Source: an uncultured Candidatus Saccharibacteria bacterium
GTDB lineage: Bacteria > Patescibacteriota > Minisyncoccia > Phycocordibacterales > Zambryskibacteraceae
DNA: 64,000 bases
NCBI GenBank assembly: GCA_964642835.1
Contig: CAZXQA010000001.1
Span: 132,314-196,313 of the forward strand
Direction: 5' to 3'
Under the pieces are notes generated by a model. It made no database searches. It saw nothing but the letters and a program-made list of their open reading frames with translations, and was not told the origin of the DNA. A program made the position numbers and the translations under genes. Every line of letters begins with the position of its first letter. The stretch's first letter is position 1. Positions 9,576 through 56,244 of this stretch are shown here, in pieces.

Positions 9576-9707
9576 GTGAGCTTCACATATTGAAAATAAC
9601 CAGATTTCATGTTAATTTAAATCCATAGTATTCAATAATTAGATTGCCCAATGAAGACACAAGGCTAACTTTATAAGTTAATTATCCGTTCAAGCGGAGC
9701 TTTGTGT

Positions 9708-11164: not shown

Positions 11165-11335
11165 GGGCGCCTTAAGAGCTACCCATCTTGAGCAGGGAAC
11201 TTTTTAGCTATTTTCAATGGTTCGCTCGTTGTAAAATAAGACTATTCTGGGACTCGGTTCGATTCCAAGACCCGCAGCCAAGTCGAGCTTAGCTCGAGAT
11301 GTGTTAAAACAACGATATCAGATACATATAGAATC
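11165..11335 (+). repeat. tRNA-Gln-derived intergenic repeat, copy 2 (long form with 5' AGCAGGGAACTTTTTAGCTATTTT module)
   Basis: Shares about 130 nt with copies at 18630 and 25753 (…CCCATCTYGAGCAGGGAACTTTTTAGCTATTTT…AAAATAAGRSTATTCTGGGACTCGGTTCGATTMC…GCAGCCAAGTCGAGC…). Confidence 0.65.
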
Positions 11336-13800: not shown

Positions 13801-13807
13801 GGAAATA

Positions 13808-15624: not shown

Positions 15625-15637
15625 ATTAGAGAATCCG

Positions 15638-16003
15638 TTAGTCCGCCTTTCGCTTCGGCCAGCCCATAGCGTCCACGTCGTGAATGGGGTCGGTGAGAAT
15701 CATTTCCTGCATGTCGGTATAGATTTCGACCGCGGGCGCCTGAAATACCGCTTCGTCCGCAAGATCCCCCGCCTGCTCGGTCTCTCTGATCAGCCCTTCG
15801 GAGAGGAGGGTAGCGACGAATGCGGAGATAGTAGAATTCCCGAGAGGAATAGCTTTGCCGTTGCCTATGGCCGCCCATAACGCAGTCCCGTCTTGGTTCA
15901 TGCTGTAATACGAGCCGGTTTCGATATTGATGACGATCGTCTCATTCTCAAGCGTCTCGCTGATAGCGGTTTTCGAATTTATGGCGTAGGTTTTTGCACT
16001 CAT
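15638..16003 (-). CDS. PqqD-family protein (RiPP recognition element-type peptide chaperone)
   Basis: 121 aa. ETLENETIVINIETGSYYSMNQDGTALWAAIGNGKAI matches the PqqD/RRE pattern (…L.n..tg.yy.LN..g..iW..l…). Confidence 0.65.
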   Translation of the reverse strand: MSAKTYAINSKTAISETLENETIVINIETGSYYSMNQDGTALWAAIGNGKAIPLGNSTISAFVATLLSEGLIRETEQAGDLADEAVFQAPAVEIYTDMQEMILTDPIHDVDAMGWPKRKAD

Positions 16004-16041
16004 GAGTAGTTATTATACTTATCTTTGAGAAATGGAAAAGA

Positions 16042-17292
16042 TTATGGCCGTATTATCTCTCCTCTCTTCTCCGCGTTGCGCACCAAGTTCGTCGCAGAGA
16101 CAGCGTCGCGCACGGCCTGAGAGGAATGATGCTTCCGCACCCACGAAGCGGCCTCGGCGCAAAGCCGCTCGGCCAACCCCGGATCATTTAAAAGGTTGAC
16201 GCAGGCCTCAGCAAACGCTTCGGGTTCATCGGCGATGAGAAGGTGGCGATTGTGCTCAACTCCCAGTCCTTCTGCGCCGATGGCGGTTGAAACCACCGGG
16301 CGGCCAAGCCCGAACGCTTCAAGAATTTTTACGCGGGTGCCGCCTCCGGATCGAATCGGTACAAGGCAGATAGAAGCATTTTGATACACCGGCATGAGGT
16401 CCGCGCGGTTGCGGTCAAAAATGATACCGGGAGTGCCATCGGGGCGAAAGGACGAAGGCGGATTAGCGCCTACCAAATGAAGTTGCAAGGCGCCCTCGTG
16501 CAGCGCTTGTATGCGCGGCCATATTTTATCTACCAGAAACTTTGCGCCGTCGAGATTGGGGAAGTAGTCCATTTTGCCGACGAACATGAGGGTGCGCGGC
16601 AGACTGTCGGGCGGAGGAGGCAGGCGCGAGGCCTGATGCGTTGCATTAGGAATCGCTACGACGCGCTCCGGTTCGGTAAGCGCGCTTATGTTCTCCTTTT
16701 CGCGCGTAGAGGCTACGTAGATTTCTTGGAACTGAGGAAGTAAAACGCGTTCCATCATGCGAAAGAGATGAAGCCCACGCTGCAGTTCCTCGACCTTTTC
16801 GGGCGGAAGACCCGGAGTTTTGAGAAACCGCAGCTGCCGTTTCGAAAGCATCTCATCTAAATCCAGATACACCGGCTGGAGACGGTCGAGTATCAGACGG
16901 ACAAAAACGGCGGTGTCGAATGCAAAGAGTAACGTAGCGTCGATGGCTTTTTCGGCATGAAGCTTTGCAATGAGCTCGGGGGCTTCTTGGGTGGTCGCAT
17001 ATACGGATGAGGGCGAGGCTCCGGCGGAAGCTCGGCGCTCATCGAGCGTATCACTCATATGCAGGTAGGTTATTGAGGCGAAACGAGCAAGGAGCGGCGC
17101 ATCAGGCTGTCCCGATAGAGCATCCGCGTAGATAATTACTACGTGTATGTTAAAGGAATCAGCCAGCGCGTCGAGGATGTGAGCGGCGCGTTGCTGACTG
17201 CCCGTGCCGAGGCGAGTGGGTTGATCGCGCCATATCCATAAAAGATTCGGGCGAGAATCTGCAGATTTTGAGGTAGCGTACATTGCGACCAT
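16042..17292 (-). CDS. glycosyltransferase family 1 (GT-B, GT4-like)
   Basis: 416 aa. C-terminal GGGTRVKILEAFGLGRPVVSTAIGAEGL, the E-x7-E nucleotide-sugar binding region. Confidence 0.85.
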   Translation of the reverse strand: MVAMYATSKSADSRPNLLWIWRDQPTRLGTGSQQRAAHILDALADSFNIHVVIIYADALSGQPDAPLLARFASITYLHMSDTLDERRASAGASPSSVYATTQEAPELIAKLHAEKAIDATLLFAFDTAVFVRLILDRLQPVYLDLDEMLSKRQLRFLKTPGLPPEKVEELQRGLHLFRMMERVLLPQFQEIYVASTREKENISALTEPERVVAIPNATHQASRLPPPPDSLPRTLMFVGKMDYFPNLDGAKFLVDKIWPRIQALHEGALQLHLVGANPPSSFRPDGTPGIIFDRNRADLMPVYQNASICLVPIRSGGGTRVKILEAFGLGRPVVSTAIGAEGLGVEHNRHLLIADEPEAFAEACVNLLNDPGLAERLCAEAASWVRKHHSSQAVRDAVSATNLVRNAEKRGEIIRP

Positions 17293-17323: not shown

Positions 17324-17369
17324 TCGTTGCATAGAGCGGTCCCTCTTAGGACTCGAACTTTGGTATAAT
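17324..17369 (+). promoter_or_regulatory. conserved promoter module (extended -10, TGgTATAAT) for the NUDIX operon
   Basis: CGTTGCATAGAGCGGTCCCTCTTAGGACTCGAACTTTGGTATAAT. Nearly identical modules precede the genes at 39066 and 58127. ATG lies 12 nt after the TATAAT. Confidence 0.6.
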
Positions 17370-17381
17370 TTCGATATTGTT

Positions 17382-17825
17382 ATGGAATATAGAAAAGCCA
17401 ACTCTTTCGGAGTTATTCCAGTCTGCAAAGACGCCAATGTCTATAAAATATTGATAGTTAAAAATAGTAAGGGTTGTCACTGGGGTTTACCAAAAGGCAC
17501 ACCCGAAGGTAACGAAATTCCGTTAGAGACAGCTGAAAGAGAGCTTAGGGAAGAAACTGGCATTGGATCAAGTGGTATTAGAATACAAGAGTCTCCTGTT
17601 TTCCTGGAATCATATTCTTTCAAACAGGGTGATCTTGTTTATGATAAAACGAATACTTATTATCTTGGATTTGTTTCTGAAATGAGTATTGGAAAGAACC
17701 TTGATGAAATAGATGAAGTTAGGTGGATTCCAATCGATGAAGCTGTAAATATCTTAAGTCATCAAAGTGTTATTGATGTTATATCTAAACTAAGAAGTTA
17801 CTTAAATACTCATAATTTGGTATAA
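17382..17825 (+). CDS. NUDIX hydrolase
   Basis: 147 aa. NUDIX box GLPKGTPEGNEIPLETAERELREETGI. Confidence 0.85.
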   Translation: MEYRKANSFGVIPVCKDANVYKILIVKNSKGCHWGLPKGTPEGNEIPLETAERELREETGIGSSGIRIQESPVFLESYSFKQGDLVYDKTNTYYLGFVSEMSIGKNLDEIDEVRWIPIDEAVNILSHQSVIDVISKLRSYLNTHNLV

Positions 17826-17837: not shown

Positions 17838-18377
17838 ATGGACACATATAAAAAATTAGGCACCTTCTACCAACGGGACATTTTCCCACAAATGGAAGAT
17901 ACTCCGTGTGATTTTGAGGATCGTGTAACTGGTAAAAGCATCATTACTAATGAGAGAGGCGGTGTTGCTCTTGTTGGAACCGCAGTTAACTATATCTATA
18001 CCTTGCCTGGTGGCGGAGTAGACGCTGGGGAAAGTATTGAGGAAGGAATTTGTCGTGAAGCCAAAGAAGAAACTGGGTATGATACTGAATGGGTTCGCAA
18101 GATTGGTGTAATTGATGACTTTAGAAATCGAGACAAAAAGCACTGTATAAGCTATTGTGCCTTGCTTAAGGCTACGAGCGAAGTCCAAGAGCTAAACTTA
18201 ACTGATGATGAAAAGAAGAATGGTTTGCATGTAAAGTGGTTTGGTTTGGAAGATGCTAAAAAAGTACTCAGTGAAGAGAATGAACAAGTTAAGAAAGGAG
18301 AGATTTCTTTCTACAATACAGCTTTTAATGTGGTCAGAGACTATGAGTTTCTTAAAGAGTATCAGAAAACTATTTAA
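17838..18377 (+). CDS. NUDIX hydrolase (second, tandem)
   Basis: 179 aa. NUDIX box GGGVDAGESIEEGICREAKEETGY. Confidence 0.85.
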   Translation: MDTYKKLGTFYQRDIFPQMEDTPCDFEDRVTGKSIITNERGGVALVGTAVNYIYTLPGGGVDAGESIEEGICREAKEETGYDTEWVRKIGVIDDFRNRDKKHCISYCALLKATSEVQELNLTDDEKKNGLHVKWFGLEDAKKVLSEENEQVKKGEISFYNTAFNVVRDYEFLKEYQKTI

Positions 18378-18629: not shown

Positions 18630-18790
18630 TAGATGCTACCCATCTCAAGCAGGGAACTTTTTAGCTATTTTTACACTCGGGCTCATTGCAAAATAAGGCT
18701 ATTCTGGGACTCGGTTCGATTACTAGACCTGCAGCCAACTCATGATAGGTTATCGCGCTCGAGACGCATTAAAACAAGGACACCGTAGCA
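18630..18790 (+). repeat. tRNA-Gln-derived intergenic repeat, copy 3 (long form)
   Basis: CTAGATGCTACCCATCTCAAGCAGGGAACTTTTTAGCTATTTTT…GGACTCGGTTCGATTACTAGACCTGCAGCCAACTCATGATAGGTTATCGCGCTCGAGACGCATTAAAACAAGG. Confidence 0.65.
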
Positions 18791-18839: not shown

Positions 18840-20270
18840 TTAGTCTAATCGACTAAAAAGATTATGAGGCTTAGCATTAGCCAGAACGGCCTTCTTAATA
18901 AGGTTGCTGGTTTCGGTCATAATCGGATTCAAAAAAAAACCGATGGAGTATAGTTCTTGCACAAGTTGAATAATGATCTCCTGGGCGGCAGATTTATCTT
19001 CTTTCACTAATTTGAATGGCTCGGTTTCTGCTATCTTTTCATCAAGTTCACCGACCTTCTGCCACACAAAATCGCAAGCCGCACGAAAATCATACACTGA
19101 AAGCGCATCCTTAAACTCGGCAGGAAACTCATCGGCAAGGCCTTCCTTGATTGGACCATCAAGATGAGTTTCGGCCATCTTCATTATTCGCGCGGTAAGG
19201 TTACCAAGCCCATTGACCAAATTGGCGGTATAGAATTCGTCCATCTTCTCCCAAGTCAAATCAGAATCGTCAGTAGGGTGAACATGCCGAAGCATAATGT
19301 ACCTCGTTGCATCTGTGCCATAGCGCTTTATCAAATCATACGGATCGATAACATTGCCGATGCTTTTACTCATTTTATGACCACCACTGTTTATAAAACC
19401 GTGATAGAAAACCTGGTCTGTCGAGGGAAGATTGGCGCTTCTAAGCATTGCTTGCCAGATAATAGACTGGAACCTAACTTGATCTTTTCCGGCTAATTGA
19501 AACGTCTCATTTTCTACCCAAAACTTTCGGAACATACCCTCTTTATCTTCAGGCCACCCAAGACATGAAATGTAGTTCACCAGCGCATCGAACCAGACAT
19601 AGACTACGTGCGCATCATCGTCGGGTACCGGGATACCCCAATCCATTCGTGACTTCTCGCGCGAGATAGATAGATCCTCGAGGCCCTGTTTAACAAAATT
19701 CAATGCTTCGTGACGGCGAAAATCAGGTAGAATGACACCCTCTTGTGAGAGATACTGCTCTAGAAAATTTTGATATTTGGAAAGTCGGAAAAAGTAATTC
19801 TCCTCCTCTATTTCCTCCGGTTCGATCTGGTGCTCCGGGCATTTGCCGTCGACCAGGTCGCTTAAATTCTTAAAGGCTTCGCAACCTACACAGTAGAGAC
19901 CTTTATACTTTTTTTTGTAAATATCACCCGCTTCTTCCCACAATTTCCAGATGTGCTGAACGGCGCTTGTGTGGGCGGGGCTTGTGGTGCGGATAAAACT
20001 ATCGTAAGAAAGATCGAGTGCGTCCTTGAGAGTCGTAAACTCTTTTGCGTATTTATCAACGTACTCTTGGCGGTCGATACCTTCCTCATCGGCTTTGCGA
20101 GCTATTTTCTGACCATGCTCATCCACGCCTGTATTAAAGAAGACTTCGTGTCCCAGGGCGCGCCAAAAACGAGCCAGGGTGTCGGCTTGCACAAATTCGA
20201 GCGCATGGCCCATATGCGGCGAAGCATTGACATACGGCAGAGTCGTAGTTATATATCGCGGCTTGTTCAT
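18840..20270 (-). CDS. metG: methionyl-tRNA synthetase (short form)
   Basis: 476 aa. PYVNASPHMGHALEF (HIGH-type), KMSKSIGNV (KMSKS), Zn knuckle CxxC…CPEH. Confidence 0.95.
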   Translation of the reverse strand: MNKPRYITTTLPYVNASPHMGHALEFVQADTLARFWRALGHEVFFNTGVDEHGQKIARKADEEGIDRQEYVDKYAKEFTTLKDALDLSYDSFIRTTSPAHTSAVQHIWKLWEEAGDIYKKKYKGLYCVGCEAFKNLSDLVDGKCPEHQIEPEEIEEENYFFRLSKYQNFLEQYLSQEGVILPDFRRHEALNFVKQGLEDLSISREKSRMDWGIPVPDDDAHVVYVWFDALVNYISCLGWPEDKEGMFRKFWVENETFQLAGKDQVRFQSIIWQAMLRSANLPSTDQVFYHGFINSGGHKMSKSIGNVIDPYDLIKRYGTDATRYIMLRHVHPTDDSDLTWEKMDEFYTANLVNGLGNLTARIMKMAETHLDGPIKEGLADEFPAEFKDALSVYDFRAACDFVWQKVGELDEKIAETEPFKLVKEDKSAAQEIIIQLVQELYSIGFFLNPIMTETSNLIKKAVLANAKPHNLFSRLD

Positions 20271-20337
20271 TGGTATATGAGAATAATATCAGACTATCAC
20301 AATATGCAGTAGTCAAAAATATTGTAGAATATCGGAC

Positions 20338-22062
20338 ATGCAAGTCTTAGGAATAAATACCGGACACGACGCGAGTGTCGCCTTGGTACGAGATGGGATT
20401 TTTGTGGAGGTGGTCAATGAGGAACGCTTTAGTCGTTATAAAAATCACCACGGATTTCCGAATCGTTCGGTTGCCTACATAAAGGAAAAATATCTGATAG
20501 ACTCCTTTGACCGAGTCGTGCTTGTATCTGCTAACGGTCGATATGACACGCCGCTTTTTGGTGATAAGGAAAATGAGGTTTTGCGCAAGCGTACCGGCGA
20601 ACCGCTTTTTATCAAGGCGGCATTCTTTAAATTAGGATTGCTCCAGGTGTGGCGTAATGTTCGGTATTGGTTCCATATCCGTTTCAAACAACCCGCGCTC
20701 AGAAAAAAAATACACGATCTCGTTCGCAAGCATTTCCCGACAGAAGAGATAATACATCTGGATCATCATTTAGCTCATGCTTGGTCAGCACTCGCATTCA
20801 CTGAACAACCGGAAGAGGCCCTCATAATCACTCTCGATGGCGAGGGTGATGGTTTGTGCGGATCGGTAAATTGCTACAAGAACAATCGATTGTCTCGGGA
20901 AATAGCTATCCCCGCCGGAGTCGGTATCGGAACATTGTATGGCAAGGTGACCGAATTTATGGGAATGCGACGCAATGAGCACGAGTTTAAGGTAATGGGC
21001 CTGGCTCCTTACGCTAAGTCGGATGCCGCTGAGCCTTTTCTTATACATTTGCGATCTCTTATCAGCTTTTCGCCGAAATCGCTCTCTTTTTCAACGCCTT
21101 TCCATATGCAGTATGCCAAATATTTTTTTATGTCAAAAACCTTCTCAAACTATCGTTTCGAAGCCTTAGCCAGCGGGATTCAGAAATTTACTGAAGAATT
21201 AGTTACGCAATTTTTAAAGGCGATATTGGACGAGTATCCATCAAAACATGTTTGTGTCGGCGGCGGTGTCTTCATGAATATTAAACTCAATCAGGTTATA
21301 CAGAGGAATTTTCCCGATATAGATCTTACCTTTACACCATCATGCGGAGATGATTCGCTATCAATCGGCGCCGCGAAGTACGGATATGACACTGCCGTTA
21401 ACGGACGTACGAAGCCGATTGAAACTCTATATTTGGGTTCTGAATACACGGATGAAGAAATCGGAGCCACAATCAATGAGTTTTCTGATAGAGATTTTAA
21501 AATCCGACACTTTTCAACGGACGGTGAGATCGAGGACGAGATATCGCGTCTTCTGGCTAAAGGTCATATCGTTGCGCGTTTTGCCGGCCGAATGGAGTGG
21601 GGTTCGCGAGCCCTCGGAAATCGCTCTATTCTGGCAAACCCGTCCGACCCACGGATTATTAGGAAAATTAATGAAGCCATCAAAAATCGTGATTTTTGGA
21701 TGCCGTTCGCGCCTACGATTCTCGATGAGGTAGTGGATGAATATTTGATAAATCCCAAAGCCTCACCGTTTATGATGGTTGGATTTGAAACGACCCCTCT
21801 GGCACAGGAACAAATACCTGCCGCTTTGCATCAGTATGATTTCAGTTGCAGGCCGCAAATTCTCAAGAAGAACGACAATCCGGAATTCCATCACCTGATC
21901 TCGCTCTTTAAGAAAAGAACGGGTATCGGCGCAGTGCTTAACACCAGCTTTAATTTACACGGCAGTCCGATCGTTGAGGGCCCGAAGACTGCTATTACCA
22001 CATTCACGCAATGCGGCCTCACACATCTTGCTATTGGAAACTATCTTTTAGTTAAAGTTTAG
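20338..22062 (+). CDS. carbamoyltransferase (NodU/CmcH family; Kae1/HypF-like ASKHA fold)
   Basis: 574 aa. LGINTGHDASVAL N-terminus and HHLAHA motif typical of NodU/CmcH O-carbamoyltransferases. Confidence 0.8.
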   Translation: MQVLGINTGHDASVALVRDGIFVEVVNEERFSRYKNHHGFPNRSVAYIKEKYLIDSFDRVVLVSANGRYDTPLFGDKENEVLRKRTGEPLFIKAAFFKLGLLQVWRNVRYWFHIRFKQPALRKKIHDLVRKHFPTEEIIHLDHHLAHAWSALAFTEQPEEALIITLDGEGDGLCGSVNCYKNNRLSREIAIPAGVGIGTLYGKVTEFMGMRRNEHEFKVMGLAPYAKSDAAEPFLIHLRSLISFSPKSLSFSTPFHMQYAKYFFMSKTFSNYRFEALASGIQKFTEELVTQFLKAILDEYPSKHVCVGGGVFMNIKLNQVIQRNFPDIDLTFTPSCGDDSLSIGAAKYGYDTAVNGRTKPIETLYLGSEYTDEEIGATINEFSDRDFKIRHFSTDGEIEDEISRLLAKGHIVARFAGRMEWGSRALGNRSILANPSDPRIIRKINEAIKNRDFWMPFAPTILDEVVDEYLINPKASPFMMVGFETTPLAQEQIPAALHQYDFSCRPQILKKNDNPEFHHLISLFKKRTGIGAVLNTSFNLHGSPIVEGPKTAITTFTQCGLTHLAIGNYLLVKV

Positions 22063-22750
22063 ATTCCTGGTGAGTAAATGGGGTATTTATTTCTGATACA
22101 TCCGGGAAAAGCTCTTTTGCGCGCTCGTAATCTTCCGGAGTGTCAATCTCGATCCACTTGGCATCCGAAACGATTGGCGCGACACGAGGTCGCAATTTAC
22201 CTTCGCCGACTCCGACTCCCCACCATTTGAGATGGTCTAGATCCTCGTAGATCGCTTGTAATGCGTCGGAGGTGACTAGAGTACAGACCTCGGCCCCGTA
22301 ACCGTGCTCTTTTGAATACTCAACAATTCTGCCTTCCTTAACTACCACCTTCATCGCTTCCGGATCATCGAAATCAGGGTCGATCAAGGAAACGGATTCA
22401 TGGTATTGATTGTAATTGTCTAACAGGGGCAATAATGCTCCAGGCGAAAGCACCAGGTCGGCATCTATAATTAAAGTATCGGCATATCCGATTGCATCAA
22501 GCGCGATTTTTAAGCCTTGAGCATTATCACCATGCTGATAATCTGGATTTGGAATAAGGGTAACTTCCGTAGATAAACTCGCAAACAGTTCGGACTGATG
22601 GCCTATGACAACATAGATCTGGTTGATGCCGTAACCATGAAGTTGTTTGAGCATGCGCCCAATAATCGACTCCCCTTGGATTTTCAAAAAAGGCTTGGAT
22701 ATCCCATTAAATCGCGAAGCCACCCCAGCCGCCATGATCAGTGCTCTCAT
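22052..22750 (-). CDS. sugar-/alcohol-phosphate nucleotidyltransferase (LicC/MobA-like NTP_transferase fold)
   Basis: 232 aa. LIMAAGVASRF (GxGxR nucleotide-binding loop). Confidence 0.7.
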   Translation of the reverse strand: MRALIMAAGVASRFNGISKPFLKIQGESIIGRMLKQLHGYGINQIYVVIGHQSELFASLSTEVTLIPNPDYQHGDNAQGLKIALDAIGYADTLIIDADLVLSPGALLPLLDNYNQYHESVSLIDPDFDDPEAMKVVVKEGRIVEYSKEHGYGAEVCTLVTSDALQAIYEDLDHLKWWGVGVGEGKLRPRVAPIVSDAKWIEIDTPEDYERAKELFPDVSEINTPFTHQESKL

Positions 22751-22790
22751 AATGCTATTCCTTGTATAAGATTTATACTATAAATATATC

Positions 22791-24125
22791 ATGAGAATTC
22801 AGGCTGGATTAACGGATGCTACGCCTTTTCTACCCCCGTTAGATATAAGGAGTTTTGATGAGTTGGCATCAAATCAAGTTGCCGCCACTCTAGACAAGGC
22901 GGCAGGATTACAGAAATCCGGCATCATTCACATTTCCGCCTCCAGATTGAGAGAGGATAAGGAGACTGGAAAGAAGTATATCGGTGGAGGTGGGCTGGCC
23001 GAAACTCTACGGGACCAGATCCCCCTAGAATCTTCATGCGGATTAAGAAGTTCGCTCTATTTACCGAATGCTCAATCGTCTTACTATCCAATTTGTCAAA
23101 AAATCTTTTCGCAGATTATCGGAGAGACAGACCGCTGTTTGTTACCCTCTGACATCGAAGAATACACGATGACCTGCACAGATCTCCGGCCGCAATTACA
23201 AAAAACGCTTATGCAAGAGCGCCCGGAGATCGTAATAATGCACGACTTTGAATTTTTACCACTGATCAGCGCCGTACCCGATTCTTTAATAAAGATCCTT
23301 CACTGGCATGTTGATTTTCCATCCAACCCTTCTGACTGTATTCCTGTCTTAATGCCATATTTAAAACAATTCGACGTGGCAATAGCTGCCGATAAAGAAA
23401 TTGCCGATAAATTGGCGTCAGTAATCCCAAACACGCGAGTCATATCGCCGAGCGTAAACCCGCAAACGATAAAACTTTCGACACCCACATCATCAAATAG
23501 AAAGAAAATTCTGGAGAAGTTGAGCATCGATTACAATCGTCCCATACTTTCTCAAATCGGAAGAATCTCAAACCAGAAAGACCCCGTATCGGTCGTGAAT
23601 ATCTTCAAGCGTGTGCGCGAAAGATTTCCGGGAACACAACTTGTCTTGGCGGGAATGTTTAATTTACCCGGTGAGGATTTCACGCTTACTTTACAAGAGT
23701 TGAGGAAACAAATCGGTCAAGACCGGGATATACACCTAATTACAAGCCCTTTAGAGATCAGCCCTTTTTCCAATGATGAATTCCTTGCCACCCTCTACTC
23801 TTCGAGTGACATTCTGATAAATATCGGCAAAAACGAAGGATTCGGATTAGTGATGACAGAAGCTATGTGGCATGGCAATATAGTGGTCGCGATGGATTCG
23901 CCTGGCGCCCGCACACAGATTGATTCTGGTCATAATGGCTTTATTATTTCCGACTTGACCCAAGCGGTTGAAAAAATCAGTGATATATTGCGGGAGCCCG
24001 ATAAATTCAAGGGTATAAAAGAGCGCGCGAAACAATCAGTGCGGGACAGGTTCTTAATCACGAATTATATGGAAGATATGATAGATTTGTACAAATCACT
24101 GCAAAAAAACCATGAGTTCAGATAG
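22791..24125 (+). CDS. glycosyltransferase family 1 (GT-B)
   Basis: 444 aa. C-terminal NEGFGLVMTEAMWHGNIVVAMDSPGARTQI donor-binding region. True start may be downstream of 22791. Confidence 0.7.
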   Translation: MRIQAGLTDATPFLPPLDIRSFDELASNQVAATLDKAAGLQKSGIIHISASRLREDKETGKKYIGGGGLAETLRDQIPLESSCGLRSSLYLPNAQSSYYPICQKIFSQIIGETDRCLLPSDIEEYTMTCTDLRPQLQKTLMQERPEIVIMHDFEFLPLISAVPDSLIKILHWHVDFPSNPSDCIPVLMPYLKQFDVAIAADKEIADKLASVIPNTRVISPSVNPQTIKLSTPTSSNRKKILEKLSIDYNRPILSQIGRISNQKDPVSVVNIFKRVRERFPGTQLVLAGMFNLPGEDFTLTLQELRKQIGQDRDIHLITSPLEISPFSNDEFLATLYSSSDILINIGKNEGFGLVMTEAMWHGNIVVAMDSPGARTQIDSGHNGFIISDLTQAVEKISDILREPDKFKGIKERAKQSVRDRFLITNYMEDMIDLYKSLQKNHEFR

Positions 24126-25752
24126 GATAAGCAAGCTTTCCAAACCGCTCTCGGAACATTCAAATCTTACAAGGTTGTTTTCTGATAATCTTTTGGATGA
24201 AGCCAATCTGTTTCTTGCCTCAGTAAATGATGCAGTGTTGAAGGGGCAAGCCAGAATTACGGGTGATGGCGTATCTGAAAGCCACAATGAGCTACTGAAA
24301 CGATTCTCTTTCTTACCAGAAGATACGACAAAAGACCCGTCTTCCGTTTTTCGTAATATCACGAACCATTTATTCTCCAGAGCTCCTCTTTGGAGAAGCC
24401 CCAGTCTCCAATACAATGTAGGAGCTCCGGTAAATGCCGTATCGTCCATACTCTATGGGACGGCAATGGACTTAAATATATTTAATATCAATGATGGACT
24501 GTCCGGAAATGCAATTGTGGCAGAGCATGCTGTCATCCGAATTCTTGCAGAATTGGCCGGGCTCGATCCAAATTCAGTGGCGGGATTCTTCACGTTCGGG
24601 GGCACTGCAACCAATCTATATGCCCTTAAACTGGCTCTGCAAAAAAACATACCTGGCTTGCGTACCGGCGGTCTATCGACCAAAGTAAAAGTCGCCCTGA
24701 CTGCCGACGCACATTTTTCTCATTTCCGCATTCTTGACTGGTTGAGTATTGGAACTGACAACGCATTAGTTTTAGCCGCGCAGAATGATCACACCACCGA
24801 TGTGCTGCCATCTCGCGCGGAACTTGAAGAGGCGCTATCTAACGGTTTCCGCATACCTCTAATAATCCTCAATGGGGGCACCACCTATGACCATGCCATA
24901 GATAATATCGCTGACTTTGTGCAACTTCGGAACGATCTGGTTGAGAAGTACAAATTAGATTACGTGCCACATATACACGCAGACTCGGTAATTGGATGGC
25001 CGTGGTTATTCTTCCGTACTTACGATTTCGAAAAAAACCCGCTTGAAATCGAGGAGCACACACTCAAGCTGATCAATCAGCAGGTCGGATATATCGAGCA
25101 AATTCGCCTGGCTGACAGTTGGGGTGTCGATTTCCACAAAGGAGTCGGCTCCTGTCCCATACCGGCAAGCGTAATTATGATAAACGATCGCCGCGATCTT
25201 CAATCACTCACCACAAAAAAACTCGGACTGCATCAATTAGCCAGTGAATACAGTACCTTTTCACCTGTAGATTTTACGCTAGAGTCATCGCGGCCGGCCG
25301 GCGCACCATTAGCGGCCTTGGGTGCACTTCATGCTCTCGGAACCAAAGGCTTCCAAACACATCTTGCCATTCTGATACAGTCGAGCCAGTTGTTTAGAGA
25401 GCTTATAGCATCACTTGGTCGCGAGGATATTCAAATATTAAACCCCGACTCAAGGGGTTATGTCACAATGCTACGACTGCACCCAGCAATTAATACACAA
25501 GAAAAGGACAACACTTACTTAAAATCCTTCTTTGAATTTGATAAAGAAAATCGGATGAAGCAAGGCGATGGTGTTGAGTATTCGTATACATCTCAATACA
25601 CAGTCGACGCAAGTGGAAAAAATTCGGATGCAATTAAGTTTTATCCGACTTCTCCTTTGATAACATCCCAGCATGTCGAAAAGGCGGTTGAAACTCTCGT
25701 AAAACAAAAAGAACTTTTTGATCAGACCTTCTTTAATTACCAACCTTGTTAG
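24112..25752 (+). CDS. PLP-dependent group II decarboxylase (MfnA/serine-decarboxylase-like)
   Basis: 546 aa. FTFGGTATNLYALKLA, HIHADSVIGW (H-x-D-A-A-x-G type), DFHKGVGSCPIPASV (PLP-Lys loop, cf. DPHKMG..P.P). Confidence 0.75.
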   Translation: MSSDRISKLSKPLSEHSNLTRLFSDNLLDEANLFLASVNDAVLKGQARITGDGVSESHNELLKRFSFLPEDTTKDPSSVFRNITNHLFSRAPLWRSPSLQYNVGAPVNAVSSILYGTAMDLNIFNINDGLSGNAIVAEHAVIRILAELAGLDPNSVAGFFTFGGTATNLYALKLALQKNIPGLRTGGLSTKVKVALTADAHFSHFRILDWLSIGTDNALVLAAQNDHTTDVLPSRAELEEALSNGFRIPLIILNGGTTYDHAIDNIADFVQLRNDLVEKYKLDYVPHIHADSVIGWPWLFFRTYDFEKNPLEIEEHTLKLINQQVGYIEQIRLADSWGVDFHKGVGSCPIPASVIMINDRRDLQSLTTKKLGLHQLASEYSTFSPVDFTLESSRPAGAPLAALGALHALGTKGFQTHLAILIQSSQLFRELIASLGREDIQILNPDSRGYVTMLRLHPAINTQEKDNTYLKSFFEFDKENRMKQGDGVEYSYTSQYTVDASGKNSDAIKFYPTSPLITSQHVEKAVETLVKQKELFDQTFFNYQPC

Positions 25753-25945
25753 CTCTAGACGCTCCCCGTCTCGAGCACGGGAACTTTTAAGCTATTTCTA
25801 GGTTTGGGCTATCGTAAAATAAGGGTATTCTAGGACTCGGTTCGAGTCCCTGTCGGGCAGCCAACTCGTGAGGCGCACAAAACGCGTCAAAACAACGATA
25901 TTTTAGGTCTGCATAGAGCGCACCCGTCTAGGACTCGAATTTTTG
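25753..25945 (+). repeat. tRNA-Gln-derived intergenic repeat, copy 4 (long form, full tRNA 3' module)
   Basis: …GGACTCGGTTCGAGTCCCTGTCGGGCAGCCAACTCGTGAGGCGCACAAAACGCGTCAAAACAACGATATTTTAGGTCTGCATAGAGCGCACCCGTCTAGGACTCGAA. Confidence 0.7.
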
Positions 25946-26488
25946 TGTGTTATTTTTCTCAATCAACTCCTTCATGTGAGAAGCAATTGGTCCTCTAATT
26001 ACATTCTCTAATTTTAAAAGCTCTTCCAATCGTTTAAGACCTTCAACGGTATTCGACTTAAACTCAACCGTATAAAAATCTTTTAGATCGTCCACCCTCT
26101 CTAGATCTATTTGGTCCTCGCCCAGGTCGTATTGCCAGCCAGTACGGTTAAACTCAAATTCATATCGGTATTGATTTAAAAGATTTTCTTCTACAAATTT
26201 AAGAGCTTCTTCTTCAGTTTCAAAACCTTTCTTGAGAGGCACTACAGTATCTACCCCAATTTCTTTCTGTTCGTGAATTTTCACCGCCACCATTACATTT
26301 GAGTCATTCCAAATATTTTTCTGGTAGATTCTCACCCTCAGAAATTCGTCATCTAAACCCTTAGGGGGGTTGTAAGAGGAATAAATCTTGTCTCGTAAAA
26401 TATATTCACCCTTAAAGACGGCTCCATTTTCCTCAAGGGTTTTCCTTGTTGAATCTATTTCGGAAGAAAATGTTCTAGCTTCAATCAT
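25928..26488 (-). CDS. hypothetical protein, possibly CYTH-like (class IV adenylate cyclase / triphosphate tunnel fold), weak
   Basis: Start taken at MIEARTF (ATG 26488-26486; TTATAAT 9 nt upstream on the minus strand). The ORF-track N-terminal extension to 26656 looks non-coding. Acidic beta-rich composition. Confidence 0.3.
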   Translation of the reverse strand: MIEARTFSSEIDSTRKTLEENGAVFKGEYILRDKIYSSYNPPKGLDDEFLRVRIYQKNIWNDSNVMVAVKIHEQKEIGVDTVVPLKKGFETEEEALKFVEENLLNQYRYEFEFNRTGWQYDLGEDQIDLERVDDLKDFYTVEFKSNTVEGLKRLEELLKLENVIRGPIASHMKELIEKNNTQKFES

Positions 26489-26774: not shown

Positions 26775-27056
26775 ATGTTCATGAAATATATGGAAGATAA
26801 AAGTAAGGGGAAAATTATTCGTCGCCTTAGACTCATTGAGGGTCAGATTCGAGGTTTGCAAAAGATGGTTGAAAGTGACACATACTGTATTGATGTGATC
26901 ACCCAAACTTCTGCAGTCAAACAAGGACTCTCTAGTATTGAAGACTTATTGCTCGAAAATCATCTTGGTGGATGCATTCTGAATCAGGTGAAAGCTGGGC
27001 AGACTGAAAAGGCGAAGCAAGAGATTTTAAAAGTTTATAAGCTAAAGAGAAAATAA
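26775..27056 (+). CDS. csoR: CsoR/RcnR-family copper-sensing transcriptional repressor
   Basis: 93 aa. RLRLIEGQIRGLQKMVESDTYCIDVITQ…ENHL..C: the Cys-His-Cys metal site of CsoR. Start may be 26781 or 26790. Confidence 0.8.
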   Translation: MFMKYMEDKSKGKIIRRLRLIEGQIRGLQKMVESDTYCIDVITQTSAVKQGLSSIEDLLLENHLGGCILNQVKAGQTEKAKQEILKVYKLKRK

Positions 27057-27059
27057 TTT

Positions 27060-29354
27060 ATGCATACACAAACATACAACGTAAAAGGAATGCATTGTGC
27101 CTCATGCTCATCTGTTATTGAAAAAACATTCAAGAAAGTCGAAGGTGTGCATTCTGCAGAAGTGAACTATGGTACTGAAAAAGCGAAAGTTTCTTTTGAT
27201 CCTTCCAAAACTAGTCCTCATGATCTCTCTAAGCACATCGAACCCCTTGGATATTCGCTCGAAGTACCTGAAACAGCGATGGAAATGGGTATGTCCGAAA
27301 GTGAGCATGCAGCCCATCTTGGACTTAATCAGTCAAAAAAGGAAAAGCTCGCCGAAGTCGCGGACATGCGAACAAAGGTGCTCTCTGCAATTCCTTTGGC
27401 AATCTTTGCAGCTCTCATTATGGGCTGGGACATTCTCGCTGAGTACAGCATTGTCCCTGCGATGAGCTATACACTCAAGGAATTTTTTCACCATCTCCTT
27501 CCAATATTTGCTACCTACATTCTTTTTGTAGTAGGTAAGCCATACCTTCTTGGTTTTTATAGATTTCTCCGATATGGCAAAGCGAATATGGATACGCTTA
27601 TTGGTATTGGTACGGTAGCCGCTTTTTTATACAGTTTCGCCGTCAGTGCTTTTGAGGATGTTCTTAAGCCATTTATTAACGTCGAATATCAATACTACGA
27701 TGTAACAATTGTAGTCATTACCTTTATCGCGCTTGGTAAATACCTTGAGGCAAGGTCTAAAATTAAAACAGGAGATGCCATCGAAAAGCTTCTCAATCTT
27801 CAAGCGAAAACGGCATTGGTTGTTCGTGATGGAAAGGAAATCGAGATTTCAGTAAATGATGTAAAGCACGGAGATTTGATCATTGTAAAGCCAGGAGCAA
27901 AAATTCCTGTTGATGGTGTGATCATTGAAGGCTCATCTTTTATTGATGAATCGATGGTTACAGGAGAGCCAATGCCTGCTCAGAAAAAGATTGGTGACAA
28001 TGTCGTATCTGGGACAATAAATACAAGTGGATCATTCACTTTTAAAGCCACTAAGGTTGGTTCAGAGACATTGCTCGCACAGATTATAAAGATGGTTGAA
28101 GATGCTCAAGGAAGTAAAGCACCAATACAGGCGCTGGCAGACAAGATATCAGCAATCTTTGTACCTATAGTTCTAATAGTCGCTTTTCTTTCCCTTGGTG
28201 CGTGGCTTATTATTGGGTCGCAATATTTGGGCTTTTCCCAAGCACTTTCATTCGGTCTTGTATCCTTTGTTGGAATCCTGGTAATAGCCTGTCCGTGTGC
28301 GCTTGGTCTCGCTACTCCAACTGCAATAATCGTCGGAGTTGGCAAAGGTGCTAAGGAAGGAATTCTTATCAAAGATGCGGCTACTCTCGAAAAACTCCAC
28401 AAGGTAAACACAGTTGTGGTCGACAAGACAGGAACAATCACCAAGGGAAAGCCGACACTTGTCGATATACAAAACTTCTCAAACTTGAAAGAGGATGAAT
28501 TTGTTTCAATTCTCGCTTCGCTTGAGAAAAAATCAGAGCATCCGATCGCACACGCAATCGTAAGCTACGCACAAGAGAAAAATATCTCAATATCTGATGT
28601 TCCAAACTTTGAAGGAATACAAGGAAAGGGTCTTAAGGGAAAGATTACAGACACTGAATATTTTGTAGGCAATGCAAAACTTGTGAGTGATCTCAAGATT
28701 TCATTTGACGCTAATAAGTTAGATGAGTTTACTTCACAAGGAAAAACACCAGTCATTCTTGCCACAAATGAAAAAGTTCTTGGTTTCGTGATGGTGGCAG
28801 ATGAAATCAAGACCGAGTCAGTAGAGGCTATTAAAAATCTTCACGCTCTCGGCATAAAGGTAGTTATGCTTACAGGAGATGATGAAAAGACTGCAAAGTA
28901 TATCGGGTCACTCGTCGGTATCGATGATGTTGTAGCTCATGTGTTACCGCAGGATAAGCTTGAAAAAATAAAAGAACTTCAATCGCAAGGTCGTATTGTT
29001 GCTATGGCTGGTGATGGAGTGAACGATGCACCTGCGCTTGCTCAGGCTGATGTAGGGATTGCGATGGGTACGGGTACGGATGTTGCGATCGAGTCTGCAG
29101 GCATCACACTTCTTGGCGGTGATATTTCAAAGCTTGTAAAAGCTATCAAGCTTTCCAAGATCACTATGCGAGGAATCAAGCAAAATCTTTTCTGGGCATT
29201 CGTCTACAACATTGTCGGTATACCACTCGCCGCAGGTGTTTTCTATCCAATCTTTGGTTGGCTTTTGAATCCTATCTTTGCTGGGTTAGCTATGGCGATG
29301 TCGTCAGTCTCCGTAGTGTCGAATTCGCTTCGCATTAAAGCTAAGAAATTATAA
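27060..29354 (+). CDS. copA: copper-translocating P1B-type ATPase
   Basis: 764 aa. N-terminal HMA (GMHCASCSSV), CPC (ACPCALGLATP), DKTGTIT, GDGVNDAP. Confidence 0.95.
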   Translation: MHTQTYNVKGMHCASCSSVIEKTFKKVEGVHSAEVNYGTEKAKVSFDPSKTSPHDLSKHIEPLGYSLEVPETAMEMGMSESEHAAHLGLNQSKKEKLAEVADMRTKVLSAIPLAIFAALIMGWDILAEYSIVPAMSYTLKEFFHHLLPIFATYILFVVGKPYLLGFYRFLRYGKANMDTLIGIGTVAAFLYSFAVSAFEDVLKPFINVEYQYYDVTIVVITFIALGKYLEARSKIKTGDAIEKLLNLQAKTALVVRDGKEIEISVNDVKHGDLIIVKPGAKIPVDGVIIEGSSFIDESMVTGEPMPAQKKIGDNVVSGTINTSGSFTFKATKVGSETLLAQIIKMVEDAQGSKAPIQALADKISAIFVPIVLIVAFLSLGAWLIIGSQYLGFSQALSFGLVSFVGILVIACPCALGLATPTAIIVGVGKGAKEGILIKDAATLEKLHKVNTVVVDKTGTITKGKPTLVDIQNFSNLKEDEFVSILASLEKKSEHPIAHAIVSYAQEKNISISDVPNFEGIQGKGLKGKITDTEYFVGNAKLVSDLKISFDANKLDEFTSQGKTPVILATNEKVLGFVMVADEIKTESVEAIKNLHALGIKVVMLTGDDEKTAKYIGSLVGIDDVVAHVLPQDKLEKIKELQSQGRIVAMAGDGVNDAPALAQADVGIAMGTGTDVAIESAGITLLGGDISKLVKAIKLSKITMRGIKQNLFWAFVYNIVGIPLAAGVFYPIFGWLLNPIFAGLAMAMSSVSVVSNSLRIKAKKL

Positions 29355-29356
29355 TT

Positions 29357-30364
29357 ATGAAAGCATACACATTACACGTATCGGGTACCCACTGTGCGTC
29401 ATGCAAAATCTTAATCGAAGATGTTTTAAATGATCAATATTATATTAGTAGTGCACAAGTAGATTTAAAAAATCAAACCTTACATATAGAAACTGTGAGT
29501 GAGAAATCTCCAGAAGAATTAGCAGTTTTACTTACTGAGAAGATAAGGCCAAACGGTTATACAGTATCAGTAGAAAAGGTTTTGATAGAAAAACAAAAAG
29601 ATGATGTTATCTGGAAAGCACTACCTATAGGGTTAGTATTCTTAATACTTTTCTTTGTATTACAAAAGTCAGGGCTATTAAATCTTGGTATCGGTGGTAC
29701 AACCACGCCTGCCACAAGTTTCATCATTGGGTTAATCGCATCTGTATCAAGTTGTCTTGCGGTGGTTGGAGGACTTGTTCTATCACTCTCAGCAAAAATC
29801 TCTCAAGACGATGTAAGTGATACAAAAACTTTCATACTTTTCCATATCGGAAGACTCGTTAGTTTTGCGCTCCTTGGCGGAGTGCTTGGCTTAGTTGGGA
29901 GTGCTATAGGAATCAGTTTTACTTTTACTGCAATCCTAGGGATTGTTGCGTCAACAGTAATGCTCCTATTGGGACTTAATCTAGTCGGAGTGTTCAAAAA
30001 GAATAAAGTTGCGTTACCTTCAGGAATTTTTAACTTCTTCCGCAAAATCGAACACAAGACTCTAACTCCTTTAATAATTGGATTTGCTACATTCTTCTTA
30101 CCTTGTGGCTTTACTCAGTCGATGCAAGTAGTAGCACTATCTAGCGGTTCATTTATTTCAGGATTACTTATTATGCTTGCGTTTGCTCTCGGTACGCTCC
30201 CAATGCTTTTGCTCCTGTCGTTTGGGGGAGCATCACTTGCTCATGGGAAACATGCACCACTTTTCTTTAAATCTGCTGGAGTGGTAGTGATAGGTCTTGG
30301 AATATTTGCACTGCTTGCAGGTCTGGCAGGACTCGGAATTATTAATCCTTTATTTAATATATAA
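29357..30364 (+). CDS. HMA-domain fused membrane protein (TauE/SafE- or DsbD_2-like 6-8 TM permease), putative copper handling
   Basis: 335 aa. N-terminal GTHCASCKILIE HMA domain, then a polytopic region with conserved Cys pairs (SSCLAV, LPCGF). Confidence 0.65.
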   Translation: MKAYTLHVSGTHCASCKILIEDVLNDQYYISSAQVDLKNQTLHIETVSEKSPEELAVLLTEKIRPNGYTVSVEKVLIEKQKDDVIWKALPIGLVFLILFFVLQKSGLLNLGIGGTTTPATSFIIGLIASVSSCLAVVGGLVLSLSAKISQDDVSDTKTFILFHIGRLVSFALLGGVLGLVGSAIGISFTFTAILGIVASTVMLLLGLNLVGVFKKNKVALPSGIFNFFRKIEHKTLTPLIIGFATFFLPCGFTQSMQVVALSSGSFISGLLIMLAFALGTLPMLLLLSFGGASLAHGKHAPLFFKSAGVVVIGLGIFALLAGLAGLGIINPLFNI

Positions 30365-30372
30365 TTAACTTT

Positions 30373-30768
30373 ATGAATAAAATCGCTTTATCAATTATTA
30401 CTATCGGACTCATTGTTGGAATTGGTGTTATTTTTGTAGGATCGAAGGATGGCGACAAAACTGCATTAACACAGTCTATGCAAAATGTTGAAGTAAAAGA
30501 TGGGATTCAATACATAACTATCGACGCTAAAGGTGGATATTCTCCAAAACTCTCTAATGCAAAGGCTGACATTCCTACCAAGTTGATCGTGAAAACAAAC
30601 GGAACTTATGACTGCTCTTCTTCACTTGTAATCAAGTCATTGGGATATCAAAAGATATTAGCGCAAACTGGAGAAGAGATGATTGATGTTGGAACACCTA
30701 AAGCAGGAGAACCACTTCAAGGAGTTTGTGGTATGGGGATGTATAGCTTCGTAGTTAATTTTAGCTAA
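30373..30768 (+). CDS. membrane-anchored cupredoxin-like copper-binding protein
   Basis: 131 aa. N-terminal TM, C-terminal C…GVCGMGMYSF Cys/Met cluster as in Cupredoxin_1-type proteins of cop operons. Confidence 0.45.
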   Translation: MNKIALSIITIGLIVGIGVIFVGSKDGDKTALTQSMQNVEVKDGIQYITIDAKGGYSPKLSNAKADIPTKLIVKTNGTYDCSSSLVIKSLGYQKILAQTGEEMIDVGTPKAGEPLQGVCGMGMYSFVVNFS

Positions 30769-32050: not shown

Positions 32051-32365
32051 GTATATATTGGTGCCAGACCAGTAAACCCTGCATAGCTATGCAGACTAGG
32101 GAATTCGTCGCATACTCGCTATGGGCCTTAGCAAGATTGACCCACTAAGATATAATGTTATGGTGTGAAAGTTTAAGTGCTGTGGCCTAAACTCTTGGTG
32201 CGAATCAGGAGCATGGTCAAAAATCATAGGACATAAAGAACCCATCATTAGGGCATGTCCTATGTTATAGGGGGAAACTCCTATAGGGGGCTTCGGCCTC
32301 TCCTAGTGGTGGGCTTTTTGTTACAAAAAAACCACCATTAATTATTACTTTAATCTTAATAATTT

Positions 32366-39062: not shown

Positions 39063-39065
39063 GTT

Positions 39066-56200: not shown

Positions 56201-56244
56201 ATACAAAGCTTTTATAAGCTCGTAAAGAGCGATATACTTTTGCC

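Follow-up and report, generated by a model that had tools for sequence, protein, structure and literature searches.

The 64,000-nucleotide stretch of Candidatus Saccharibacteria DNA analysed here (the window) contains a compact cassette of about 7 kb, acquired horizontally and predicted to encode soluble enzymes alone. It comprises the genes for a methionyl-tRNA synthetase (MetRS), a carbamoyltransferase (CT), a nucleotidyltransferase (NT), a glycosyltransferase of family 4 (GT4) and a pyridoxal phosphate (PLP) enzyme, and it is bordered by two copies of a tRNA-like repeat. An earlier note on this DNA described four adjacent open reading frames at 20338-25752 with overlaps of 11 nt (CT/NT, convergent) and 14 nt (GT4/PLP enzyme); these positions and overlaps are correct, but the four-gene unit is too small, as the MetRS gene just outside it belongs to it as well. 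Relatives were taken from 46 non-redundant loci carrying the PLP gene, which were collected by a scan of species-representative genomes and from the mostly metagenomic contigs behind protein homology matches; they are referred to by locus (L) number. The features of the cassette, with the basis for each, are as follows.

18653..18745, no strand: left junction repeat, a diverged footprint resembling a tRNA 3' end (T-arm, acceptor, CCA) with the start of a hairpin; repeat family D3 (alignment, blastn)
18840..20270, minus strand: MetRS, type 1, 476 aa (TIGR00398, PDB match, motifs, synteny with L048)
20271..20337, no strand: divergent intergenic region between MetRS and CT, 67 bp (same divergent layout in L048)
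20338..22062, plus strand: TobZ/NodU/CmcH-type CT with Kae1-like and YrdC-like domains, 574 aa (Pfam, PDB)
22052..22750, minus strand: LicC/IPCT-like NT (NTP_transf_3), 232 aa, the 'slot-2' enzyme of the core (Pfam, family profile)
22751..22790, no strand: divergent intergenic region between NT and GT4, 40 bp (coordinates)
22791..24125, plus strand: TreT-like GT4 glycosyltransferase, 444 aa (Pfam, PDB)
24112..25752, plus strand: divergent PLP enzyme with a group-II-decarboxylase fold, 546 aa, the anchor gene of the family (structure model, motifs)
25780..25960, no strand: right junction repeat, complete copy; repeat family D3 (alignment, blastn, inspection)

The five genes have a common composition, common boundaries and a conserved neighbourhood. 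GC content at third codon positions (GC3) is 0.48 in MetRS, 0.46 in CT, 0.46 in NT, 0.47 in GT4 and 0.43 in the PLP gene; it is 0.56-0.67 in local high-GC core genes, 0.24-0.34 in the NUDIX hydrolase gene pair at the left and 0.28-0.40 in the copper-resistance/recombinase block on the right. Gene order and orientation are identical in L048 (MetRS<, CT>, NT<, GT4>, PLP>), where the proteins share 72, 67, 66, 52 and 61% identity, respectively, with those of the window. L003 and L050 have all five genes, rearranged and with an extra methyltransferase gene; L049 has the order PLP>NT>MetRS>GT4. The divergent NT/GT4 pair is kept in L048, L003 and L050 with a gap of 13-91 bp. The shared GC3, the flanking repeats and the synteny with these four loci place MetRS in the unit, and it is very probable that all five genes form one functional unit; the short intergenic gaps (67 and 40 bp) and the two overlapping gene pairs also speak for this. 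The 67-bp region between MetRS and CT is probably a bidirectional control region; a promoter scan finds no strong sigma-70 consensus in it. Promoter and terminator scans of the cassette show no enrichment, and an Rfam search finds no riboswitch or T-box in or near it.

The repeat at the two junctions is approximately 100-180 nt long in this window and consists of a tRNA 3' end (T-arm, acceptor and CCA; several copies are identical to tRNA-Gln) and a conserved hairpin. The left copy sits between the NUDIX block and MetRS. The right copy matches the final 23 nt of the tRNA-Gln genes in the window exactly (25839-25861), with CCA and the hairpin following. There is no integrase gene inside the 7-kb block; the gene for a large serine recombinase (30761-32050) lies 5 kb downstream. 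When clustered at 90% identity, the cassette proteins have 4-7 members (PLP enzyme 2) from several contigs and samples, compared with 1-2 for high-GC core proteins of the same contig; these cluster sizes fit a circulation of the cassette wider than the present host genome.

The PLP enzyme belongs to a large, unnamed family of proteins of approximately 560 aa. The earlier identification as a group-II PLP decarboxylase is upheld at the level of fold, though the Pyridoxal_deC (PF00282) score of 21.1 bits is under the gathering cut-off of 27; some relatives pass this cut-off (e.g. P0022, 54 bits). All NCBIfam equivalogs score far under their cut-offs. The AlphaFold model (predicted local distance difference test, pLDDT, 83; predicted template-modelling score, pTM, 0.87) confirms a predicted fold-type-I, GAD-like three-domain architecture. 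Foldseek matches to this model are GAD65/67, CSAD, GADL1, DABA decarboxylase and DfoJ (probability 1.0, template-modelling score 0.6-0.7, 15-19% identity). H201, D291 and K343 (SWGVDFHK343, i.e. SW-x5-K343 with the 'DFHK' motif) are invariant across all clades of the family. By analogy with known motifs, H201 is the ring-stacking residue, D291 the partner of the pyridine nitrogen and K343 the PLP-binding lysine. The group-II decarboxylases (GAD65/67, CSAD, GADL1, DABA decarboxylase, DfoJ/DesA, MfnA) share this fold, the His/Asp/Lys set and a length of approximately 500-560 aa. In contrast to these, the PLP enzyme has low identity and a sub-threshold Pfam score, and there are no antiporter, siderophore or ectoine genes nearby; it is not found in an acid-resistance context. 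The subfamily signature is 'NGGTTY...D', 'ADSWGVDFHK' and 'TLETSR'. Flexible-loop position 388 is Y, F, I or H within the family, so the PLP chemistry could differ among members. A role of the loop Tyr/Phe as an aldehyde-synthase switch was considered and dropped, since the position varies freely among close relatives.

Hosts of the PLP loci include bacteria of the candidate phyla radiation (CPR, or Patescibacteria), DPANN archaea, Actinobacteria, Gemmatimonadota, Paenibacillus and others, with CPR and DPANN predominating. No homologue is present on the viral contigs of IMG/VR, and a viral origin was rejected. Plasmid-borne relatives were also discounted; the only matches, at about 28% identity in Bacillus and Brevibacillus, have other partners and no synthetase. 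No published description of a module of PLP enzyme, nucleotidyltransferase and synthetase was found in the literature.

The remaining three biosynthetic enzymes have ordinary domains. CT matches Carbam_trans_N (107 bits) and Carbam_trans_C (198 bits) in Pfam, and thus has Kae1-like N-terminal and YrdC-like C-terminal domains. Its closest solved structures are carbamoyltransferase 7xb6 (187 bits) and TobZ (170 bits); the O-carbamoyltransferase assignment of the earlier note (NodU/CmcH type) therefore holds, as TobZ/NodU/CmcH type. CT is not NodU itself (equivalog score 104 bits, cut-off 1000), and its TsaD and HypF matches in NCBIfam are weak. NT matches NTP_transf_3 (59.5 bits, cut-off 27). 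The GxGxR loop ascribed to it is present in most relatives, as GTGTR or GKGTR; in the window protein the loop reads GVASR. When the NT family profile is compared with PDB, LicC (1jyk) is best at 52 bits, and the PntC-type fusion 6pd1 and IPCT (2xme, matched over its full length) follow; NT is thus nearer to the LicC/IPCT-type phospho-alcohol cytidylyltransferases than to MobA or IspD. The enzyme previously termed GT1 is indeed a Glycos_transf_1 glycosyltransferase (76 bits) but is more exactly GT4 and TreT-like: it contains the TreT_GT1 N-terminal domain (47 bits), and its closest solved structure is TreT (2x6q, 140 bits). It is not a TreT orthologue (NF041139, 154 bits, cut-off 775), and it is far under the equivalog cut-offs of MshA and BshA, which are GT4 enzymes for small free acceptors. 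As none of CT, NT, GT4 and the PLP enzyme reaches any NCBIfam equivalog cut-off, no specific enzyme name can be assigned to them.

Unbiased clustering of neighbouring open reading frames across the 46 loci gives a conserved core of three components: the PLP enzyme, a nucleotidyltransferase and a class-I aminoacyl-tRNA synthetase. The nucleotidyltransferase is encoded directly beside the PLP gene and is of two kinds. In the window's clade it is the LicC-like NT, which adjoins the PLP gene in 12 loci, the window included. In most of the family it is F2, a slot-2 enzyme of approximately 300 aa that has no Pfam assignment and only weak matches to a PolyA_pol head and RNA-binding Pfam domains. The F2 model (pLDDT 91) has 33 structural matches at probability 1.0, all of them class-II tRNA nucleotidyltransferases (A-, CC- and CCA-adding enzymes, bacterial poly(A) polymerase, FAM46). 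F2 lacks their tRNA-binding body and tail domains and the Arg of the EDxxR motif, and it has no homologue in the window. There are no LicD-type structural matches, and a LicD-like identity was rejected on this structure; an apparent identity with GT2 arose because F2-GT2 fusions had joined the two groups in single-linkage clustering. These fusions occur in Actinobacteria (L006 2056-4071 and L019 8197-10251; Solirubrobacter and a Pseudonocardiaceae metagenome-assembled genome). A PLP-F2 fusion of 839 aa (P0108), which like the F2-GT2 fusions ties components of the pathway together, is encoded in L051 at 4538-7057. This locus also encodes a carbamoyltransferase, MetRS, a MiaB-type and two further radical S-adenosylmethionine (SAM) enzymes, a PNP_UDP_1 nucleosidase-like protein and a hydrolase of the haloacid dehalogenase (HAD) family.

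The synthetase, counted within 8 kb of the PLP gene, is present in 36 of the 46 loci: 28 have MetRS, 6 CysRS, 1 LeuRS and 1 TyrRS. Where both flanks extend for 4 kb or more, the figure is 24 of 28 loci, with MetRS in 19. Chance adjacency is effectively excluded for MetRS. LeuRS is not accepted as a true third partner: the residues of the PLP enzyme concerned (L017) are of Met type, and on this truncated contig the two genes may be neighbours by accident. The NT-type loci without MetRS are L043 and L045 (TyrRS nearby), and the PLP gene is broken in both. A PLP-MetRS distance correlation (rho 0.41, 1 of 2000 permutations) is confounded by shared ancestry.

CT is limited to five lineages (the window, L048, L003, L050 and L051) and the TreT-like GT4 to four (the same without L051); both are therefore regarded as tailoring additions. 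Co-conservation of the four genes of the earlier note is thus found in the window's subclade (L048, and rearranged in L003 and L050), but CT and GT4 are outside the conserved core. Several loci carry other additions. L030 has the order PLP>NTP_transferase>F2, L052 has a TagD/ECT-type cytidylyltransferase, and in L034 the PLP gene is found with a methyltransferase gene and one for a betaine-type transporter. The methyltransferase of L003 and L050 resembles amine N-methyltransferases. A separate tRNA_bind gene follows MetRS in L021 and L040. F5, a protein of approximately 343 aa, was considered as a LicA-like kinase and set aside: it is unrelated to the MTR-kinase-like protein of L021, and L039, a weak relative (21 bits to the F5 profile), has NHL beta-propeller repeats.

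The CysRS-linked PLP enzymes form a single clade, in which DPANN archaea, CPR bacteria and a proteobacterial metagenome-assembled genome are mixed (L031, L032, L036, L037, L041 and L047; PLP>F2>CysRS). They have PF instead of TT in the active-site NGGTTY motif and have gained four conserved cysteines, at positions equivalent to 104, 477, 490 and 511 of the window enzyme; the flexible loop also differs. These residues suggest that the chemistry of this clade is different, perhaps sulfur- or metal-dependent.

The MetRS of the window is complete and looks ordinary. It scores 419 bits against TIGR00398 (metG, cut-off 336) and 360 bits against Aquifex MetRS (2csx), to which it aligns up to residue 461, so the anticodon-binding domain is kept. 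The motifs HMGH19 and KMSKS299 and the zinc knuckle C127xxC...CPxH are intact. Against a very large number of Kaiserbacteria and Parcubacteria MetRS its identity is 68-79%, which suggests that the host belongs to the CPR. Cassette-linked copies nest among ordinary ones in the tree, that of the window within ordinary Kaiserbacteria MetRS, and no substitutions are common and specific to them. In three sister genomes without the cassette, MetRS is in a housekeeping neighbourhood (ArgRS-IleRS-...-class II synthetase-MetRS-TatD-VanY-S6-SSB-S18-EF-P-sigma-RecA) with no cassette genes nearby. The window gene is outside this synteny and inside the block bounded by the putative integration footprints.

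Comparison of the window with L003 and L050 gives identities of 63% for NT, 55% for CT and 50% for the PLP enzyme, but merely 37% for MetRS. Co-transfer of MetRS as a fixed part of the module was therefore rejected (37% where the biosynthetic genes are about 50-64% identical). The types of MetRS differ by host: the window has type 1, and the cluster MetRS of Actinobacteria is the archaeal/eukaryote-like type 2. The difference between 50-63% and 37% indicates that the biosynthetic genes move and that adjacency to a lineage-typical MetRS is re-established or retained. Selection for proximity to a functional MetRS accounts for this better than a specialised resistance variant does.

From the observed gene content, folds, catalytic residues, co-conservation, fusions and mobility, a pathway can be proposed in which we infer every substrate, the order of the steps and the role of MetRS. 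The PLP enzyme would remove the carboxyl group of an amino acid or phospho-amino acid, leaving an amine or amino-alcohol, with a specificity that would track the partner synthetase and would be methionine-related in the window cassette. The LicC/IPCT-like NT would then activate the phospho-compound that results, or else a sugar phosphate, probably to a CDP or NDP derivative, the TreT-like GT4 would glycosylate a free small-molecule acceptor and the TobZ-type CT would carbamoylate the product. One building block, activated methionine in the form of Met-AMP or Met-tRNA, would come from the divergently transcribed MetRS; this enzyme may in addition balance methionine charging against a drain on, or disturbance of, the methionine pool by the pathway. 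Such a role is played by the extra synthetases within aminoacyl-nucleoside clusters (AbmK, AcmD and SbzA). A small cytoplasmic conjugate would result, i.e. an aminoacylated and/or phospho-linked, glycosylated and carbamoylated amine. All of the proteins are predicted to be soluble, there is no membrane component or polymer transferase, and GT4 is TreT-like; a soluble small-molecule pathway is consequently somewhat favoured over a surface polymer. The fuller proposal, a cytoplasmic nucleotide-activated, glycosylated and carbamoylated small amine conjugate coupled to methionine activation, is put forward tentatively, and it is rather doubtful that methionine or MetRS is an actual chemical participant. 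The sequence of decarboxylation, nucleotide activation and glycosyl or carbamoyl transfer suggested previously remains a reasonable pathway logic; what it missed is the MetRS partner.

A number of observations weigh against this proposal. Of 245 highly conserved columns, only 3 are altered in the window MetRS (3-7 in housekeeping controls), and this MetRS may simply be the translation enzyme of the organism. Four well-flanked loci (L030, L034, L043 and L052) have no synthetase at all. Synthetase genes are clustered in CPR genomes, so adjacency to 'any' synthetase is likelier there; the preference for MetRS specifically is not explained by this. No recognisable aminoacyl-transferase or amide ligase is present in the cassette besides MetRS. 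The five genes are on alternating strands and do not form a single operon. Finally, more distant relatives, in Solirubrobacter, Paenibacillus and L049, are found among GT2, WbsX, epimerase and sulfotransferase genes, which favours a glycan role at least in those loci.

Such a role leads to the explanation nearest to the earlier note, a Lic-like decoration of a surface glycoconjugate (teichoic-acid, S-layer-glycan or exopolysaccharide-like). The decarboxylase would lead to a phospho-amine and a CDP-amine for transfer, and MetRS would be a mere neighbour or a co-regulated housekeeping gene. The element shared with the Lic pathway (LicA, LicC, LicD) and with the TagD/TarI, PntC and IPCT/DIPPS routes is the NT, whose nearest solved relatives are LicC, PntC and IPCT; the amino-alcohol could come from a decarboxylase. 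The F2-GT2 fusions, the TagD/ECT-type or sugar-1-phosphate nucleotidyltransferases and GT2s of some relatives, the methyltransferase and betaine-type transporter of L034 and the amine N-methyltransferase-like enzyme of L003 and L050 also agree with this explanation. However, domain searches find no LicA-like or other kinase and no LicD-like or CDP-alcohol transferase in the cassette, and Pfam domains and transmembrane prediction reveal no transporter, flippase, polymerase or exporter. The cassette proteins and the partners that recur among relatives have no transmembrane segments and are predicted to be soluble. The candidate for 'LicD', F2, is structurally a class-II tRNA nucleotidyltransferase. 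TreT acts on a free sugar acceptor, and enzymes of its family use free small acceptors. The synthetase partner has no Lic counterpart, and neither the association with MetRS and CysRS nor its switch with the PLP clade is explained. The polysaccharide-type genes upstream (11.3-17.3 kb) are in a compositionally different block. The teichoic-acid or S-layer role suggested by the earlier note consequently finds no support in the cassette, and Lic-like decoration is unlikely overall. In another explanation the target is tRNA: tRNA(Met) would be modified, or Met-tRNA used, with an amine, sugar or carbamoyl group, and the synthetase would recognise or charge that tRNA. F2 matches CCA-adding-type enzymes and occurs in one fusion with the PLP enzyme, anticodon domains are retained in the synthetases, a tRNA_bind gene follows MetRS in two loci, CT has the Kae1/YrdC domain pair of the t6A machinery, and L051 encodes a MiaB-type enzyme. 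A PLP enzyme that acts on aminoacyl-tRNA exists (SepSecS; PMC2275076). Nonetheless, the window carries the LicC-like NT and not F2, F2 lacks the tRNA-binding body and tail domains and the EDxxR Arg, and an esterified carboxylate is no substrate for a decarboxylase. The F2-GT2 fusions and polysaccharide-type neighbours fit poorly, and there is no covariation or other RNA evidence. A tRNA-directed function is accordingly quite unlikely. A broader possibility, an undescribed synthetase-coupled system in which PLP enzyme, nucleotidyltransferase and MetRS or CysRS act on an aminoacyl-adenylate, aminoacyl-tRNA or tRNA, is given a low but not negligible chance.

Full-length synthetases among small-molecule genes are known from the aminoacyl-nucleoside clusters, i.e. 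albomycin (AbmK, with the carbamoyltransferase AbmE and the methyltransferase AbmI), ascamycin, SB-203208 (SbzA) and agrocin 84 (AgnB2). In these, AbmK, AcmD/AcmF, SbzA and AgnB2 supply or install the aminoacyl group, confer immunity, or both, and carbamoyl- and methyl-transferases are encoded as well (PMC8323819, PMC12945691). An inhibitor cluster of the albomycin, agrocin 84 or ascamycin type would make a product that mimics methionyl-adenylate, with MetRS as the self-resistance copy. The gene mix is similar (synthetase, CT, PLP enzyme and nucleotidyltransferase, with the methyltransferase in L003 and L050 and the HAD hydrolase and radical-SAM enzymes in L051), the unit is mobile, and a change from MetRS to CysRS with the PLP clade would be expected of resistance directed at the target. 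Actinobacteria have a cluster MetRS of archaeal/eukaryotic type, and extra MetRS genes are reported from putative agrocin-like actinobacterial clusters (PMC8323819). The window MetRS, in contrast, is not divergent; a resistance paralogue was rejected for its clade because of the ordinary tree position and the few deviating columns. There is no exporter, and many of the carriers are tiny-genome CPR and DPANN organisms whose adjacent MetRS genes are among housekeeping genes with matching composition. A tblastn search with all agn proteins of the agrocin 84 plasmid pAgK84 against the window and all loci found no homologue of AgnA or AgnC1, and identity with the published agrocin 84-like MetRS clusters was rejected for this reason; the matches were AgnB2 to the synthetases, and generic similarity of short-chain dehydrogenase/reductase, methyltransferase, MccF-like and radical-SAM type. 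An inhibitor cluster is therefore very unlikely. Least is to be expected of a role in amino-acid supply or quality control, in which the PLP enzyme would make, salvage or destroy methionine or its analogues (e.g. homocysteine) for MetRS. A PLP domain that serves MetRS in this way is known from Mycoplasma penetrans, where a PLP aminotransferase is fused to MetRS (PMC7694997), likewise in a reduced genome. The active sites of the PLP enzymes differ with the partner, some neighbours are salvage-like (a weak MTR-kinase-like gene in L021, a PNP_UDP_1 gene in L051), and the carriers are mostly auxotrophic CPR and DPANN lineages. However, the M. penetrans domain is an aminotransferase that supplies methionine, whereas the gene here is a separate one with the fold and His/Asp/Lys set of decarboxylases, which consume an amino acid, and it is always found with a nucleotidyltransferase. 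This obligatory partner, the PLP-F2 fusion, the glycosyltransferases and CT are all unexplained, and the supply role is highly improbable.

Mycothiol synthesis also pairs a GT4 (MshA) with an enzyme of a class-I synthetase family (MshC, a CysRS paralogue). MshC has lost the anticodon domain; the cassette synthetase keeps it, and there is no deacetylase or acetyltransferase. The core itself, a group-II decarboxylase fold with a LicC-like or CCA-enzyme-like nucleotidyltransferase, is unlike any described synthetase-containing pathway. Biosynthetic clusters with a synthetase are already known and the individual domain calls are ordinary; the core combination is what appears to be new. The cassette and its neighbours are also not recognised as an anti-phage defence system: PADLOC gives only marginal matches (at most 21 bits; NUDIX proteins and MetRS).

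The junction repeat is not confined to the cassette but borders many small low-GC gene blocks across the window. Its copies and the two tRNA-Gln genes are located as follows.

9249-9320 and 53345-53416: tRNA-Gln genes
9473-9563, 11196-11318, 17328-17377, 18653-18745, 25780-25960, 38890-39070, 53567-53594: dispersed repeat copies
55191-55279, 55941-56020, 56157-56231, 58087-58119, 61555-61591, 62411-62504: further dispersed repeat copies

The repeat-bounded blocks look like the footprint of serial site-specific integration, i.e. an array of cassettes beside two tRNA-Gln genes. Other cargo of such blocks includes Exo_endo_phos, LigT/2'-5' RNA ligase, VanY/M15 peptidase, AAA_18 kinases, an ABC exporter, a methyltransferase and Ham1. 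Directly after tRNA-Gln, a small low-GC cassette (9702-11132) encodes an ABC-F-type ATPase with two ABC_tran domains and ABC_tran_Xtn. An ABC-F gene also adjoins L045, the degraded locus with PLP, NT and TyrRS genes.

The tandem NUDIX hydrolase genes (17382-17825, GC3 0.24; 17838-18377, GC3 0.34) form their own repeat-bounded block, which adjoins the MetRS cassette. On pAgK84, two adjacent NUDIX genes are near the resistant LeuRS; their likeness to the window pair is only at the generic level of the Nudix box. In CPR-type genomes, NUDIX domains are also found inserted in LeuRS, and a His_Phos_1 phosphatase domain in IleRS, at the following positions.

L003, 2694-5528: LeuRS/IleRS insertion
L050, 17690-end: LeuRS/IleRS insertion
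L056, 990-4493: LeuRS/IleRS insertion
L058, 1-2877: LeuRS/IleRS insertion
L059, 1812-4286: LeuRS/IleRS insertion

Both NUDIX and His_Phos_1 recur as separate genes beside the PLP/MetRS module. The insertions may share a function, e.g. hydrolysis of adenylates or nucleotide conjugates.

To the left of the NUDIX block is a high-GC cluster on the minus strand (11353-17292). It encodes GT1 (16042-17292), a borderline PqqD-like protein (15638-16003), a weak HPr-kinase-C-like protein (14494-15624), GT2 (13808-14497) and an 815-aa fusion of an NTP_transf_5 nucleotidyltransferase with a Polysacc_synt flippase-like domain (11353-13800). This combination of GT1, PqqD, HPr-kinase-C, GT2 and NTP_transf_5 resembles the tailoring sets of lasso peptides and other ribosomally synthesised and post-translationally modified peptides. 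To the right of the cassette is the copper-resistance block (26775-32050), with a CsoR-type repressor (26775-27056), a CopA P-type ATPase, a DsbD_2-HMA protein and a cupredoxin; the large serine recombinase (30761-32050, minus strand) and a LOOT RNA (32184-32301, 75.7 bits) come after the copper genes. Beyond these are phage-like genes for superinfection immunity, a small-terminase-like protein and a DNA methylase. Copper block, recombinase and phage-like genes are probably one integrative element.

An annotation of the cassette as glycan decoration overlooks the adjacent synthetase, which is easily passed over as a 'housekeeping' gene; a degree of caution is required with such annotations. 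Should MetRS or CysRS prove to be functionally coupled, CPR and DPANN, the prokaryotic lineages that are understood least, would possess a widespread module that joins amino-acid activation to small-molecule or RNA chemistry and is mobile between phyla and domains. If the synthetase-coupled reading is true, this would be a new tRNA-dependent biosynthetic or tRNA- or aminoacyl-modifying chemistry, of which the window holds a mobile version tailored with sugar and carbamoyl groups; alternatively, the family could show how a scaffold inherited from CCA-adding enzymes has been put to a new purpose. Five soluble genes within 7 kb provide a testable handle, and they could yield new aminoacyl or nucleotide conjugates, possibly ones that target translation.

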